From the sequence record PQ390715.1: a stretch of DNA of 64,000 nucleotides; one strand, given 5' to 3'. The translations under genes and the position numbers were made by a program. This DNA is from Escherichia phage SHEFM2K. This document shows, piece after piece, positions 48,384-53,187 of the stretch (positions within the stretch are counted from its first letter, which is position 1; each line of letters opens with the position of its first letter). The notes under the pieces are model-generated. The model was not told where the DNA came from. It did no database searches and was given only the letters and a program-made list of their open reading frames with translations.

Positions 48384-48575
48384 TTACTTTCTATATATAA
48401 GCATTAAGATATAGTAGTACTGATTATACTGTACATTCTCTTTAATATTATAAGGGTCTATAGCAATCTCGGTACATCTGTTAAATGCATATCTATTAAA
48501 TGCCAGTGGAATTATAGATCTAATCCATACTTGTTCATTTTCTTTTAGTTTACTTATATAGAAGTTTTTATACAT
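48384..48575 (-). CDS. hypothetical protein, FamC
   Basis: about 60-aa tandem paralog. Confidence 0.55.
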   Translation of the reverse strand: MYKNFYISKLKENEQVWIRSIIPLAFNRYAFNRCTEIAIDPYNIKENVQYNQYYYILMLIYRK

Positions 48576-48590
48576 AGTATTCTCTATTAA

Positions 48591-48773
48591 TTAATATGAT
48601 AGTACTAGTGTTAGTACTGAGCACAATTGTTCTTTATAGTTCTTATGGTATATAGAATCTTTTATGCACTCATTGAAGTGCCATAGGTATAATCTTGGGT
48701 CGCATTCTTTATATATTCTTACGGGGACGAATGTTAGTTTTCGTATATAGAATTCTTTATGTTCTTTATTCAT
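48591..48773 (-). CDS. hypothetical protein, FamC
   Basis: MNKEHKEFYIRKL; 1-nt gap to next gene. Confidence 0.6.
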   Translation of the reverse strand: MNKEHKEFYIRKLTFVPVRIYKECDPRLYLWHFNECIKDSIYHKNYKEQLCSVLTLVLSY

Positions 48774-48774
48774 A

Positions 48775-48963
48775 TTAGTACCTGAATATAAGTAGGATTA
48801 TGTTATAGTACTGGTTAGTACTGCAATGATTCTCTATACATCGATTAACAGTTATGGAATAGCTATATCTGGCGTAAGCATTATCCAGGGGGATTTTACA
48901 TTGAGCACTTAGAGAAAGTACAGTAGGTAGTGTATTCAAATAGAAGTCTTTGTAATTATTCAT
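48775..48963 (-). CDS. hypothetical protein, FamC
   Basis: MNNYKDFYLNTL..LLIFRY. Confidence 0.6.
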   Translation of the reverse strand: MNNYKDFYLNTLPTVLSLSAQCKIPLDNAYARYSYSITVNRCIENHCSTNQYYNIILLIFRY

Positions 48964-49165
48964 ACAGGAATAGTATACCTATGATGCCGGAGTACAGGTT
49001 AGTACTGTTACCATCTTCATTTGCGTTTAAAGTCATTTGAATACAATTATTGTAGCATACTCTGCCGAAAAATGTATTAGTACTTAAAGGTGGAGTAGTC
49101 CTTAGAAACATTTGTTCTGAGGGGCTTATGTATTTGGAGTAGAATTCTTTATGTTCTTTATTCAT
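48956..49165 (-). CDS. hypothetical protein, FamC
   Basis: MNKEHKEFYSKY; close paralog of 52549-52758. Confidence 0.6.
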   Translation of the reverse strand: MNKEHKEFYSKYISPSEQMFLRTTPPLSTNTFFGRVCYNNCIQMTLNANEDGNSTNLYSGIIGILFLYE

Positions 49166-49170
49166 ATTAG

Positions 49171-49356
49171 TTAGTGTCTGTATATAAGTAATAGTAAGAA
49201 TACGTACTGCACATCTTCATCTTTAGTATTGAGTACTGTACGTATTGCGTCATTAAACAAGAATATAGTACTTGGGTCATGAGAATTTAAAGGGGTTCTG
49301 GGTACGGCACATTTGTAGTTCCCTTTAACAAATTGTGTGTAGTATTCTCTATGCAT
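49171..49356 (-). CDS. hypothetical protein, FamC
   Basis: MHREYYTQF..LLLIYRH. Confidence 0.6.
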   Translation of the reverse strand: MHREYYTQFVKGNYKCAVPRTPLNSHDPSTIFLFNDAIRTVLNTKDEDVQYVFLLLLIYRH

Positions 49357-49357
49357 A

Positions 49358-49543
49358 TTAGTACCTATATATTAGGGCGATAATGTAGTACAATTCATAT
49401 GGAATGTAATTTGGGGTGATCGCACACTGTGTATGGTAAATGAATTGTTCGGTATTTTTCTTATCCTTGATATCTATTGGGATTAGTGGTATAAGCATTT
49501 GGGAGTTTAGATCGAGATGGCTTAAGTAGAATTCTTTATGCAT
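49358..49543 (-). CDS. hypothetical protein, FamC
   Basis: MHKEFYLSHL..ALIYRY. Confidence 0.6.
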   Translation of the reverse strand: MHKEFYLSHLDLNSQMLIPLIPIDIKDKKNTEQFIYHTQCAITPNYIPYELYYIIALIYRY

Positions 49544-49552
49544 ATTGTTCTC

Positions 49553-49741
49553 TTAGAATACGAAAGCTAGGTACAGGGTATGATACAGTACTCGATGGTA
49601 GCTGTCATGATCTAGTATACATGCTTTAGTGCACATAGTAAAGTACACTTTATCGTTTTGTGCATTGATACCGCGAGGTTTATCTAATAGATTAGTACTG
49701 AGGTACATTGGGAAATATTTTGTGTAGTATTCTTTATGCAT
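49553..49741 (-). CDS. hypothetical protein, FamC
   Basis: start at ATG 49741 (MHKEYYTKYF). Confidence 0.6.
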   Translation of the reverse strand: MHKEYYTKYFPMYLSTNLLDKPRGINAQNDKVYFTMCTKACILDHDSYHRVLYHTLYLAFVF

Positions 49742-49742
49742 A

Positions 49743-49925
49743 TTAGTACCTGAATATAAGTAGGATAGTGTTATATAGCTGGTCATAACTACTACTATTT
49801 TCTATACTTCGTTCTATGCAGTTATTGAATCCCAGTACTGCCAAATCGTTATCCATAGGGACTTTATATCTGGCGTAGTGTTCAAAAATGCTGGGGAGAA
49901 ATTGTGTGTAGTATTCTTTGTGCAT
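49743..49925 (-). CDS. hypothetical protein, FamC
   Basis: MHKEYYTQFL..LLIFRY. Confidence 0.6.
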   Translation of the reverse strand: MHKEYYTQFLPSIFEHYARYKVPMDNDLAVLGFNNCIERSIENSSSYDQLYNTILLIFRY

Positions 49926-49926
49926 A

Positions 49927-51344: not shown

Positions 51345-51352
51345 AGTATTCC

Positions 51353-51541
51353 TTACATAGAGATGAGTTTCAGTACATCAATATACATATAACGTTCAGA
51401 TGACTGTACACGGGTAGTGATAATCTCAATCGATATGTTTTTAATTAGAGGTGAAGATGATTGATGGTTCTGAATAAATGTGTGGTGCATACTTTGTTCT
51501 ATGTGGTTTAGTTTATTGAAGTAGTACTCAAAAGTGTTCAT
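51353..51541 (-). CDS. hypothetical protein, FamD
   Basis: MNTFEYYFNKL..YIDVLKLISM. Confidence 0.6.
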   Translation of the reverse strand: MNTFEYYFNKLNHIEQSMHHTFIQNHQSSSPLIKNISIEIITTRVQSSERYMYIDVLKLISM

Positions 51542-51548
51542 GTCTACC

Positions 51549-51728
51549 TTAGATTGAGATTAGTTTAAGTACTTCTCTGTACGTGTACTTTTCGTTTTGT
51601 GCTTCTACTGTACACGAGAGTAGATAACGTTTTTTATCTCTTTTGTTCCCGACTGTGTAGTACCTTTGGAATTTATTATAGTTGTATCTATCTTTGTGCT
51701 GGAGGTTATAGATATAGAATTCTTGCAT
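51549..51728 (-). CDS. hypothetical protein, FamD (59 aa, below track cutoff)
   Basis: MQEFYIYNL..YREVLKLISI. Confidence 0.5.
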   Translation of the reverse strand: MQEFYIYNLQHKDRYNYNKFQRYYTVGNKRDKKRYLLSCTVEAQNEKYTYREVLKLISI

Positions 51729-51736
51729 AGAGTACC

Positions 51737-51922
51737 TTATATTGCTATCAGTTTGAGTACTTCAATATATGTGCGGTACTCTGCTTTAATTAAATTTGTA
51801 CACACTGTAAGGGAATTTCTTTGTATAAGTTTATTGCCGCTTTTATACGCATTTCTCCACACATAGAGATGAGATCTTTCAGGCATAGATAGTTTATTGG
51901 TATAGTACTCAAATGTATTCAT
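51737..51922 (-). CDS. hypothetical protein, FamD
   Basis: MNTFEYYTNKL..YIEVLKLIAI. Confidence 0.6.
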   Translation of the reverse strand: MNTFEYYTNKLSMPERSHLYVWRNAYKSGNKLIQRNSLTVCTNLIKAEYRTYIEVLKLIAI

Positions 51923-51930
51923 ATATTACC

Positions 51931-52134
51931 TCAAATAGAGATTAGTTTAAGTACTTCTCTGTATGTGTACTTTTCGTTTTGTGCATCTCTTGTGCTTGTA
52001 TATAGGTATCCTCGACGATATTTGTTGCTCCCGTTCTTGTAGTTGAATTCGAACTTATTGTAGATGAATCTATCGCCAGGCTGTAATTTACTTAAGTACA
52101 ATTCAATGCTCATAGTATTCTCTTTACATATCAA
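51931..52134 (-). CDS. hypothetical protein, FamD
   Basis: ..YTYREVLKLISI. Confidence 0.6.
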   Translation of the reverse strand: MICKENTMSIELYLSKLQPGDRFIYNKFEFNYKNGSNKYRRGYLYTSTRDAQNEKYTYREVLKLISI

Positions 52135-52309
52135 TAAGTTTCAGTACTGCTCGGTACGTGTACTTAGTTGTCAGTGCTTCTTTAATAGAAATACAGAAGT
52201 AATGTTGTTTGTCTCTTATACTGCCGCGTTTGTAGTACCACACATGGGAGTTGTGACTGTACTTGTCTCTGTCGGATAGTTGTTGGTAGTAGTAGCTTAT
52301 ATGATTCAT
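52124..52309 (-). CDS. hypothetical protein, FamD
   Basis: ..YTYRAVLKLIDM. Confidence 0.6.
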   Translation of the reverse strand: MNHISYYYQQLSDRDKYSHNSHVWYYKRGSIRDKQHYFCISIKEALTTKYTYRAVLKLIDM

Positions 52310-52361
52310 TATAATGTAATTAGCCTTACTATATTAAAGTACTCGGTCCCTGGTGTACCTT

Positions 52362-52556
52362 TTAGAACTTAAAGATGAGGTTCAGGATAGAGCGGTACTT
52401 AGTTTCAGGGAACTGATGTTCTATTGCATAACGTGTCACCATCCTGAAATCGTAATTATAATACAGATTATCCTTTCTCATAGGTGGTGCTAAAGAGAAT
52501 GATAGCTGTTCTTGTTTGGGTAGTTTACTACAATAGAAATCTTTATGATTATTCAT
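52362..52556 (-). CDS. hypothetical protein, FamC
   Basis: MNNHKDFYCSKL..LNLIFKF. Confidence 0.6.
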   Translation of the reverse strand: MNNHKDFYCSKLPKQEQLSFSLAPPMRKDNLYYNYDFRMVTRYAIEHQFPETKYRSILNLIFKF

Positions 52557-52758
52557 AGAAATATATTAGTCCTATTAAACCTGAGTACATAATATTTTTG
52601 TTATTGCATTCGATTGCTTCTAGAGTACTACGTATACAATTATTAAAGCAATCTCTACCGAATTGAGTATTGGTACTTACAGGTGATACACTCCTTAGAA
52701 ACAATTGTTCTTCGTTGCTAAGGTATTTGGTGTAGAATTCTTTATGTTCAGTATTCAT
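52549..52758 (-). CDS. hypothetical protein, FamC
   Basis: MNTEHKEFYTKYL. Confidence 0.6.
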   Translation of the reverse strand: MNTEHKEFYTKYLSNEEQLFLRSVSPVSTNTQFGRDCFNNCIRSTLEAIECNNKNIMYSGLIGLIYFYE

Positions 52759-52759
52759 A

Positions 52760-52963
52760 TTAGTACTCGATTAATAGGGTAAGGATGTAATAGTATTGCA
52801 TACATTCTACCCCTTGTAAAGCATTTCTTATGTTATTATTCCTGTACGAGTTCAGGAGTTTAGGGCTACGTTTGAGGTGTTTGAAATTAGTTTGTGTATG
52901 CAGTAGGCTTTCACGTAGACCTTTTGTTGGTAGTGCATCGATGTAGTACTGTTCGATATTCAT
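52760..52963 (-). CDS. hypothetical protein, FamC-like
   Basis: MNIEQYYIDAL..LTLLIEY. Confidence 0.55.
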   Translation of the reverse strand: MNIEQYYIDALPTKGLRESLLHTQTNFKHLKRSPKLLNSYRNNNIRNALQGVECMQYYYILTLLIEY

Positions 52964-53187
52964 ATAGATAGCAGTACTAAGATTTTTGATAATTGTTTAT
53001 TGCTATCCCCGCAGATGTTGCTGTGTAAAATACTCACAATGAGGGTATCAATTGCATTGTTCATCATAAGGGTGCATCCTGGACTATTATAATTTTTTAG
53101 CTCAATTAGCCACGAACTATCCGCGAGAAATTCCCCGTACTCTAGTTCATTTAGAGTATTGAGGTAGTACTTAAGAGTATTTGTCAT
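52960..53187 (-). CDS. hypothetical protein, FamC-like (first gene of minus-strand array)
   Basis: AAGGAG SD; TTGACA N17 TACTAT promoter upstream. Confidence 0.55.
   Translation of the reverse strand: MTNTLKYYLNTLNELEYGEFLADSSWLIELKNYNSPGCTLMMNNAIDTLIVSILHSNICGDSNKQLSKILVLLSI

Follow-up and report, generated by a model that had tools for sequence, protein, structure and literature searches.

A lineage-specific family of small tandem genes beside the terminal repeat of Asteriusvirus jumbo phages: operon anatomy, predicted fold, and signs of birth-and-death evolution

The window analyzed here, a 64,000-nucleotide (nt) stretch of Escherichia phage SHEFM2K (sequence record PQ390715.1), carries on its minus strand, at positions 48384–53187, an array of exactly 21 small genes encoding proteins of 59–75 amino acids (aa), together with one gene of 219 aa, as counted from six-frame open reading frames (ORFs). 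We read this array, with roughly even confidence, as a lineage-specific multigene family of Asteriusvirus phages whose free-standing, ~60-aa proteins are encoded in one operon, evolve by birth and death, and probably act as early, non-virion accessory factors. A hidden Markov model (HMM) of the family matches all 21 small genes and no other ORF of the window. An earlier note on this DNA, made from its letters, had described at least 21 small genes in two interleaved arrays. The count holds and includes the 59-aa genes at 50139–50318, 51165–51344, and 51549–51728, whereas gene order and profile comparisons replace the two interleaved arrays with nested blocks of one superfamily.

Numbered from the promoter, the genes run as a C-like head block (g01–g04), a 52-nt gap, the FamD genes (g05–g10), the 219-aa gene, and the FamC genes (g11–g21); the FamD block, with proteins ending in ...VLKLISI, is thus nested inside C-type genes (FamC proteins end in ...LLIFRY). 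In that order, the features are as follows.

53213–53241, minus strand: array promoter of sigma-70 type, TTGACA-17 nt-TACTAT, with the palindrome CAGTACTG in the spacer, followed by the Shine-Dalgarno (SD) sequence TAAGGAG and the g01 ATG (promoter scan).
52960–53187, minus strand: g01, 75 aa, MTNTLKYYLNTL...KILVLLSI, a marginal, divergent member (ORF; weak HMM tests).
52760–52963, minus strand: g02, 67 aa, a divergent member whose start overlaps the stop of g01 as ATGA (87.5% to FamC by hhalign, E 3.6e-6).
52549–52758, minus strand: g03, 69 aa, FamC, MNTEHKEFY...LIYFYE, older duplicate of g18 (phrog_11711, E 1.7e-12).
52362–52556, minus strand: g04, 64 aa, FamC, 8-nt overlap with g03, paralog of g19 (ORF).
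52310–52361, minus strand: 3' end left over from gene Y, a family member that was deleted (alignment with slurp01 and 121Q).
52124–52309, minus strand: g05, 61 aa, FamD, ...AVLKLIDM, basic (ORF, HMM).
51931–52113, minus strand: g06, 60 aa, FamD, ATG at 52113 (start as in annotated orthologs).
51737–51922, minus strand: g07, 61 aa, FamD (ORF).
51549–51728, minus strand: g08, 59 aa, FamD (ORF).
51353–51541, minus strand: g09, 62 aa, FamD (ORF).
51165–51344, minus strand: g10, 59 aa, FamD, ...IIALASI (ORF).
50495–51154, minus strand: gene of a 219-aa basic protein, single copy, embedded in the array (phrog_29152).
50320–50502, minus strand: g11, 60 aa, FamC, ATG at 50502, 8-nt overlap with the 219-aa gene (ORF).
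50139–50318, minus strand: g12, 59 aa, FamC (ORF).
49927–50130, minus strand: g13, 67 aa, FamC, with a 12-bp tandem duplication (YYIEYYIE; ORF, Tandem Repeats Finder (TRF) at 50090–50120).
49743–49925, minus strand: g14, 60 aa, FamC, the member with a predicted structure (AlphaFold2; phrog_11711, E 2e-24 over residues 1–60).
49553–49741, minus strand: g15, 62 aa, FamC, ATG at 49741 (ORF).
49358–49543, minus strand: g16, 61 aa, FamC (ORF).
49171–49356, minus strand: g17, 61 aa, FamC (ORF).
48956–49165, minus strand: g18, 69 aa, FamC, duplicate of g03, missing from 121Q and SP27 (ORF, repeats, ortholog groups).
48775–48963, minus strand: g19, 62 aa, FamC, paralog of g04, missing from 121Q and SP27 (ORF, ortholog groups).
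48591–48773, minus strand: g20, 60 aa, FamC (ORF).
48384–48575, minus strand: g21, 63 aa, FamC, the last gene of the array (ORF).
48070–48090, minus strand: inner boundary of the terminal repeat in the E9.1 layout, with a weak terminator-like hairpin at 48086–48070 (E9.1 alignment; hairpin prediction).

Small genes start 184–247 bp apart (median 195), close to the period of about 190 bp reported earlier. For g06, g11, and g15 an internal ATG (52113, 50502, and 49741) is preferred over the longest ORF, in agreement with annotated orthologs and the family alignment. TRF detected no tandem repeat of ~190-nt unit length, just five short arrays with periods of 8–12 nt. A gap-free repeat finder recovered conserved junction segments spaced ~184–200 nt apart and two-gene units of 371–392 nt; the unit g06–g07 recurs as g08–g09 at a spacing of 381–382 nt, and a 246-nt repeat of 74% identity ties g18–g19 (copy at 48926–49171) to g03–g04, 3593 nt away.

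That the two types belong together is indicated by profile comparisons of members from nine genomes and of database sequences, grouped by BLAST. An HMM built from FamC alone recovers 36 of 39 FamD sequences at E < 0.01 and none of 390 shuffles, the FamD HMM recovers 43 of 121 FamC sequences and none of 1210 shuffles, and hhalign joins FamC to FamD over 54 columns with a probability of 94.9% (E 4.2e-8). By these sequence measures, FamC and FamD form one superfamily. The g02 type also joins FamC by hhalign (87.5%). The g01 type is marginal: hhalign gives 2–10% with the N terminus aligned only, and its orthologs score at E < 0.01 in 4 of 8 and 6 of 8 cases, with no shuffles. Alignment of all 21 proteins, in which the conserved N- and C-terminal motifs of the earlier note are apparent, reveals an invariant Tyr and near-invariant Leu residues at an overall paralog identity of 10–45% (10–24% to g01, 11–42% to g14). 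The database family phrog_11711 (function unknown) gives full-length matches in 13 of the 21 (g03, g04, and g11–g21; best E 1.2e-27); g01, g02, and g05–g10 have no phrog_11711 match even at E ≤ 1 and are in no PHROG. Thus phrog_11711 covers FamC only, whereas the FamC–FamD link comes here from profile comparison. Kinship with the neighboring 72-aa "LGTNYQE" family at 22–28 kb was considered and rejected (hhalign probability 1.7%).

Beyond phrog_11711, the 21 proteins give isolated single-member matches in Pfam, NCBIfam, and PADLOC (the best being EB1, E 4.3e-4, and PDC-M37A, 0.0024), none of them family-wide, and a sequence-profile search of the PDB returned nothing below E 0.7. A word-indexed profile search of 5.8 billion proteins retrieved 57 clusters of small hypothetical proteins, all encoded on phage-type contigs of ~350 kb or on short contigs from metagenomes. 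When 1.84 billion representatives were searched exhaustively with an HMMER profile, 32 clusters (50% identity) were retrieved, 31 of them of 59–69 aa and one of 41 aa, and none is fused to another domain. With one FamC member, g03, as the tblastn query (E ≤ 0.01), 34 phage records were found, all from Escherichia or Salmonella phages, so no relative in other genera was detected at that sensitivity. A divergent 250-kb metagenome contig retains the same synteny: an RCC1 array, 18 family members divergent from it, and a 222-aa gene in the same internal position.

AlphaFold2, run on g14 with a 72-sequence family alignment, predicts a compact four-helix bundle (helices 3–7, 12–18, 27–42, and 46–58) with a predicted local distance difference test score (pLDDT) of 93.4 and a predicted template modeling score of 0.75; the structure prediction proposed in the earlier note thus gave a confident fold. 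A Foldseek search with this fold returned no informative structural relative, and the note's alternative, that the sequences match a known structural domain, found no support in the sequence or structure searches. Columns of low entropy fall at the hydrophobic, aromatic core (5, 6, and 10; 33, 36, 37, 40, and 41; 50, 53, 54, 56, and 57), whereas positions 11–32 and most non-core positions of helices 3 and 4 have entropies of 2.5–3.5 bits. The family has, then, a conserved core with hypervariable helix 2, following loop, and non-core positions of helices 3 and 4. Tyr makes up 11.2% of the codons of the small genes, and aromatic residues 8–21% of each protein. Five of the six FamD proteins are basic (pI 9.2–9.6, net charge +2.6 to +5.6), g09 being neutral (pI 6.9); FamC pI values range from 5.3 to 9.4.

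Over 48300–53300, the window is 99.6% identical at full length to Escherichia phage vB_EcoM_E9.1 and 88–99% identical to ~30 other Escherichia and Salmonella jumbo phages (Asteriusvirus), among them 121Q, PBECO4, slurp01, SP27, and phAPEC6; by sequence, the source is an Asteriusvirus jumbo coliphage of the 121Q/PBECO4 type. Deposited records label the region as "hypothetical protein" genes adjoining RCC1-like "regulator of chromosome condensation" genes. In E9.1, bases 1–2500 recur unchanged as bases 347745–350244 of that record and match the window from position 48090 toward lower coordinates. This identity implies a 20,107-bp direct terminal repeat with its inner boundary at 48090, 294 bp beyond g21 at the end of the array, so that ~28.0–48.09 kb of the window would correspond to the terminal repeat. 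The boundary is placed from the layout of E9.1 only; the part of the vB_Ec-M-J record that was read shows no terminal-repeat annotation. Terminal repeats of 20.7 and 21.3 kb have been reported for Sharanji and Munch.

Against five relatives, the pooled Nei-Gojobori ratio of nonsynonymous to synonymous substitution rates (dN/dS) is 0.35–0.50 (12–19 ortholog pairs per genome), compared with 0.43–0.66 for the 219-aa gene and 0.18–0.77 for the RCC1-like neighbors. Such values indicate protein-coding genes under purifying but relaxed selection. All members are intact in each verified relative, and frameshifted copies occur in two UNVERIFIED records only.

Copy number differs among related isolates, a comparison that the earlier note had proposed as a check. 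By HMM counts, the family has 15–22 members in twelve related genomes, including 21 in the window and in E9.1, 22 in BF17, 20 in slurp01 and in WPEC5, 19 in SP27, 18 in the metagenome contig, 17 in PBECO4, 16 in 121Q, at least 15 in A4, and 15 in SD-2_S15; FamD copies alone number 2 to 6. We drew up strings of ortholog groups across nine genomes. With a stroke marking the position of the 219-aa gene, the window reads ABCDEFGHIJ/KLMNOPQRSTU, 121Q reads ABCDEVJ/WKMNOPQTU, and WPEC5 reads ABXYEFGHIJ/LMNOCPQRZU. Clean losses have removed g18–g19 from SP27 and 121Q and g06–g09 from 121Q; V, W, X, and Z are replacements and Y is an extra member, V–Z being present in just some genomes; and a C-type copy lies at a different position in WPEC5 and BF17. 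In WPEC5, the 5' end of g11 is joined to the body of g12 in one fused, chimeric gene. The 52-nt gap at 52310–52361 aligns to the last codons of gene Y. Intact copies of this gene exist in slurp01, WPEC5, and BF17, whereas the window and 121Q have lost ~160 nt of it between two AAGGT microhomologies. A 12-bp tandem duplication at 50090–50120 adds YYIE to g13 in this genome only. Repeat units in the array measure about 190, 382, and 3593 nt.

Within one genome pair, some orthologs are 100% identical and others 82–89%, a mixture that suggests exchange of segments between lineages. Among FamC paralog pairs, identical residues use the same codon in 72% of cases at the 5' end versus 48–52% elsewhere, which fits translation-initiation constraints, recombination at 5' ends, or both. 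One-to-one orthologs, lineage-specific gains and losses, and a decayed copy are all found, and together they mark birth-and-death evolution by unequal and illegitimate recombination, which explains why copy number differs between phages that are otherwise about 90–99% identical. Recent expansion as a gene accordion was rejected despite the difference in copy number, as near-identical copies are absent (the closest DNA repeat reaches 74% identity across 246 nt) and the copies, at 10–45% identity, are old. The "gene accordions" of poxviruses are recent, near-identical gene amplifications.

The array is probably a tightly packed, translationally coupled operon read from one upstream promoter, as the earlier note had also proposed. 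TTGACA-17-TACTAT is the sole strong promoter-like site ahead of the array and every base of it is preserved in eight relatives and the divergent metagenome contig; promoter, SD sequence TAAGGAG, and their spacing are kept in all of these even where the first gene is different. All genes lie on the same strand, with junctions of −8 to +15 nt except at the remnant. Inside the array, 27 promoter-like sites were counted versus 34.8 expected from shuffles, so there is no excess, and a terminator scan of the coding strand predicted no terminator-like site. A candidate second promoter in the 52-nt gap, TTAATA-18-TATAAT, was rejected: the gap is a coding remnant, coding in relatives, and the match there is probably fortuitous.

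The spacing of 1–2 nt that had been called typical holds for only six of the 21 junctions, where a single nucleotide separates stop from start (TAA-T-ATG). Neighboring genes overlap at four others (−4 or −8) and lie 5–15 nt apart at ten, and the remaining one is the 52-nt gap. An SD motif of the (A)GG(T/A) type precedes 17 of 22 starts, and the median energy of the anti-SD duplex is −3.7 kcal/mol at starts versus −0.05 at the other 80 in-strand ATGs. Starts without the motif overlap or closely follow the upstream stop (−4 to +8 nt). In FamC, the motif often consists of the codons of the C-terminal Arg-Tyr and the stop (AGG TAC TAA T ATG); in FamD, motif and stop overlap (TAAGGTA). Because the SD motifs are built from gene ends, part of the C-terminal conservation may serve the ribosome-binding site of the next gene.

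The array promoter is one of 14 promoters of the form TTGACA-N9-10-AGTACTG-NN-ATAAT in the window, where 0.02 would be expected; most of them precede small genes at 29.6–47.7 kb, in the small-gene region of the terminal repeat. The array genes also prefer C-ending codons as do the terminal-repeat genes (TAC 62%, TTC 73%), unlike the RCC1-like genes (25% and 20%). The virion proteome of phAPEC6 lists 62 proteins, among them eight of the RCC1-like neighbors and none of the small proteins (PMC7247149). In the related phage CBB, RpoD-like promoters are concentrated ahead of short hypothetical genes that lie close to the terminal repeat and were read as early, host-takeover functions (PMC5259590), and in T4 the small counter-defense gene tifA undergoes segmental amplification (Srikant, Guegler & Laub 2022, PMC9391042). 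We favor an early, non-virion role on account of all four: the promoter type, which prevails in the small-gene region of the terminal repeat, the codon preference, the absence of the small proteins from a virion list that contains their RCC1-like neighbors, and the CBB promoter clusters taken together with counter-defense by small-gene amplification in T4.

In the proposed mechanism, host RNA polymerase would transcribe the array, probably early, as one polycistronic mRNA of ~4.8 kb. Translation would begin at short SD sequences in the last codons (AGG TAC TAA) or stop (TAAGGT) of the upstream gene, or by termination-reinitiation at overlaps. The products would be non-virion accessory factors with a common scaffold and surfaces diversified for different host or competitor targets, and which members a phage lineage gains or loses would follow the hosts that it encounters. 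The array itself evolves by duplications of single genes and gene pairs, the longer-range duplication of g03–g04 to g18–g19, microhomology deletions, and chimera formation at conserved 5' ends. T4-like phages have plastic accessory regions with early short genes. By analogy with these regions and with tifA amplification, the proteins may be diversified binders in host takeover or counter-defense, a suggestion we make tentatively and with clearly less conviction than the description of the family itself. Promoter type, codon preference, variability, and the lack of small proteins among those listed for the phAPEC6 virion would be compatible with an accessory locus for anti-defense or host takeover.

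Several points weigh against the early-accessory interpretation. The −10 hexamer of the array promoter, TACTAT, is weaker than those of the terminal-repeat promoters, and, with dN/dS below 1, pervasive positive selection is not indicated. Domain, PADLOC, and structure searches found no homology or fold match to known anti-defense or host-takeover proteins. Mass spectrometry of virions can readily overlook proteins of ~7 kDa, and a literature search turned up no transcriptome, ribosome-profiling, or proteomic data for the Asteriusvirus group. The data are also compatible with a relaxed, nearly neutral expansion.

Such an expansion is the basis of the alternative that the array is genome filler, a nearly neutral product of tandem duplication after capsid enlargement (the headful "ratchet" of Hua et al.), tolerated because the capsid has spare capacity and with members of little or no function. 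Tandem duplication was proposed as a route of jumbo-genome expansion by Hua et al. (2017), who cited an array of >30 genes in 121Q (PMC5646251), and the authors of the phAPEC6 study concur (PMC7247149). The free variation of copy number from 15 to 22, with losses that have no obvious consequence, the moderately relaxed dN/dS of 0.35–0.50, and the several other paralog arrays in the window are all in keeping with it. We nevertheless think it unlikely: the dN/dS values lie clearly under 1 and none of the 21 ORFs is broken, their core residues being kept despite paralog identities of 10–45%, which together imply that the copies are old and maintained. Most orthologs are one-to-one across isolates and the divergent metagenome relative, promoter and SD sequence are strictly conserved, and the sole decayed copy is a short remnant, as if dead copies were removed and not kept as filler. 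The opposite extreme, that the ORFs are not genes and arise incidentally from a non-coding DNA element that is repeated, draws on the peak of nucleotide conservation at unit boundaries and on the lack of annotation for several members in many early genome records. It is effectively refuted by the coding signatures: in all verified genomes, a frame of 59–75 codons stays open in 21 of 21 units, with an ATG and an SD sequence or coupling, dN/dS is below 1, covarying sequences yield a confident predicted fold, TRF finds no ~190-nt repeat, and Rfam gives no match.

Two further alternatives accept the genes as functional and assign them other roles. The basic FamD proteins, or perhaps the whole family, might be small DNA- or virion-associated proteins that work with the RCC1-like "DNA condensation" virion proteins or with the inner body of 121Q. 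Five of six FamD proteins do carry a net charge of +2.6 to +5.6, the array divergently adjoins RCC1-like genes whose phAPEC6 homologs are virion proteins, and 121Q gives an inner-body-like bubblegram (PMC5646251). This role appears quite improbable to us, given that no small protein is among the 62 of the phAPEC6 virion although a 4.66-kDa protein was detected there, that FamC proteins are neutral to acidic as often as basic, that the promoter is of sigma-70 type and the codon usage unlike that of RCC1 genes, and that structural searches found no DNA-binding fold. Lastly, the products might not be independent binders but separate two-hairpin helical units that stack into a heteromeric, alpha-solenoid-like scaffold, a "split" HEAT/ARM-type assembly. 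Co-transcription and tight coupling would favor stoichiometric co-production, and the proteins are rich in Tyr and other aromatics; Foldseek gave no match, however, and free variation in copy number and membership is hard to square with obligate ordered assembly. We regard this idea as very improbable.

The embedded 219-aa protein (pI 9.3; Tyr 6.4% of codons) is encoded by a single-copy gene in phrog_29152 (function unknown) and, as judged from sequence, is not related to the small family. Its homologs, 65–98% identical, are found only in Asteriusvirus-type contigs and always within the array; scans of IMG/VR anchored on this gene returned 121Q itself alone. The earlier note had labeled it as related to another paralog family of the window. 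Searched with phmmer against the window ORFs at E ≤ 10, it finds only itself and no paralog, and HMMs of the two paralog families at 1–22 kb score ≤3.8 bits on it, within the range of shuffles (up to 10.4 bits). Pairwise BLAST against these families gives E values of 0.001–0.002 confined to a C-terminal motif of 50–63 residues, and the short motif "LTPEEEFMYSTV" / ELTPEEEFMYSTVID resembles their TLSxEELFQxSLV; the relation is thus reduced to a resemblance of motifs. The protein has no Pfam, PDB, or PHROG function, and its AlphaFold model is unusable (pLDDT 37, shallow alignment). In the Salmonella phages SD-2_S15 (6895–7308) and SD-6_S16, the gene is shortened to 137 and 120 aa; the Salmonella-infecting relatives also have the smallest arrays, with 15 members and just 2 of FamD.

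Several features around the array are recorded here in their own right. The 8-bp palindrome CAGTACTG occurs 64 times in the window versus 0.9 expected, densely at 46440–48383 and 28–48 kb, and sits just upstream of the −10 element in the TTGACA-N9-10-AGTACTG-NN-ATAAT promoters; it might serve as an operator, as extended −10 context, or as a target of modification. GTAC occurs 10–18 times per kb in most segments of the window and 4.2 times per kb in the array at 22–28 kb. The T4-type late-promoter core TATAAATA is absent from the window (positions 1–64000; 0 versus 16 expected from shuffles), and is missing also ahead of the RCC1-like genes, whose phAPEC6 homologs are virion proteins. Between the array and the terminal-repeat genes lies an ORF-poor stretch of ~1.9 kb (46440–48383) that has 13 copies of CAGTACTG, short period-10 repeats at 48003–48026 and 48241–48269, a perfect consensus promoter at 47725–47698 (minus strand), other promoters on both strands, and the minimum of the cumulative GC skew. 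The array and 219-aa genes show no excess of G at codon position 1 (−0.05 versus +0.17 to +0.48 in other gene sets) and have a GC skew at third codon positions of −0.33 to −0.35; through this unusual composition, the plus-strand GC skew flips sign at ~48 kb though the coding strand is unchanged. Rfam gave no credible match in the whole window or in 46.3–48.45 kb, and a search of the window found no tRNAs.

The array is one of several in this part of the genome. A second tandem family, with 30 members of ~72 aa, an "LGTNYQE" motif, and mostly overlapping stops and starts, occupies 22224–28226, 7486–7879, and 20469–20947. On the minus strand at 250–22300 there are at least two further paralog families (12 and 10 members, 110–200 aa), together with singletons, the 12-member family having the common motif TLSxEELFQxSLV. 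On the plus strand at 53291–62984, divergent from the small-gene array, are at least eight tandem RCC1-like beta-propeller genes; their phAPEC6 homologs gp003–010, gp549, and gp551 were detected in virions, and their copy number differs between relatives.

Tandem arrays have been described in 121Q, which is of the same phage group, and in phage G, and were read as products of tandem duplication (Hua et al. 2017, PMC5646251; PMC7247149); the phenomenon is the same as that seen here. The published array of ">30 very similar genes," mentioned in one sentence for 121Q, fits the ~30-member 72-aa family at 22–28 kb better than the 15–22 members of the present one and is probably that "LGTNYQE" family. 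Already known, then, are tandem arrays of the 121Q type, the genes as deposited hypothetical entries, and FamC as a PHROG. The family, its fold, operon, copy-number variation, and position at the terminal repeat are not described in PMC5646251, PMC7247149, or the Sharanji, JP4, and fEgEco12 papers. In the literature that was checked we likewise did not find FamC united with FamD, or any account of birth-and-death dynamics, operon anatomy, fold, or position at the terminal-repeat boundary.

Comparison with known systems brings out both likeness and difference. The likeness to tifA in T4 lies in recombination that alters how many copies of a small accessory gene a large virulent phage carries, with gains coupled to losses elsewhere through headful packaging; in T4, however, the copies are recent and near-identical and the target is demonstrated, whereas here they are old and diverged, the youngest pair being 74% identical at the DNA level. 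Phage CBB (vB_PcaM_CBB) likewise has RpoD-type promoters ahead of runs of short hypothetical genes near its terminal repeat, but has 22 paralogous ORFs in its whole genome (PMC5259590). Tandem paralogs beside terminal repeats, gained and lost between isolates with orthologs still recognizable, are shared with African swine fever virus (ASFV) and the poxviruses, which belong to another virus realm and encode unrelated, much larger proteins, and for which a host-interaction role is established where ours is only deduced. In those viruses, the multigene families MGF110, MGF360, and MGF505 of ASFV and the host-range families of poxviruses are terminal and have a role in host interaction. The parallel invites a bolder reading, which we think rather unlikely: the array would be a heritable repertoire of single-domain four-helix binders, each neutralizing a different defense or takeover target and reshuffled by recombination at conserved gene ends, and, with the other arrays flanking the 20-kb repeat, the genome ends would be the bacterial-virus counterpart of the terminal multigene regions of poxviruses and ASFV.

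Jumbo phages are candidates for therapy, and the function of most of their genes is unknown. The array supplies some 20 naturally occurring versions of a very small scaffold with a confident predicted structure, handy for binding and anti-defense screens, and the copy-number variants across isolates form a natural series that could be correlated with host range. Should the proteins act in counter-defense, the array would hold an uncommon wealth of new inhibitors; if they are dispensable, it would support the filling of spare capsid capacity by duplication. In either case, it provides a clear example of phage genome growth and remodeling by duplication, deletion, and chimera formation beside a terminal repeat.

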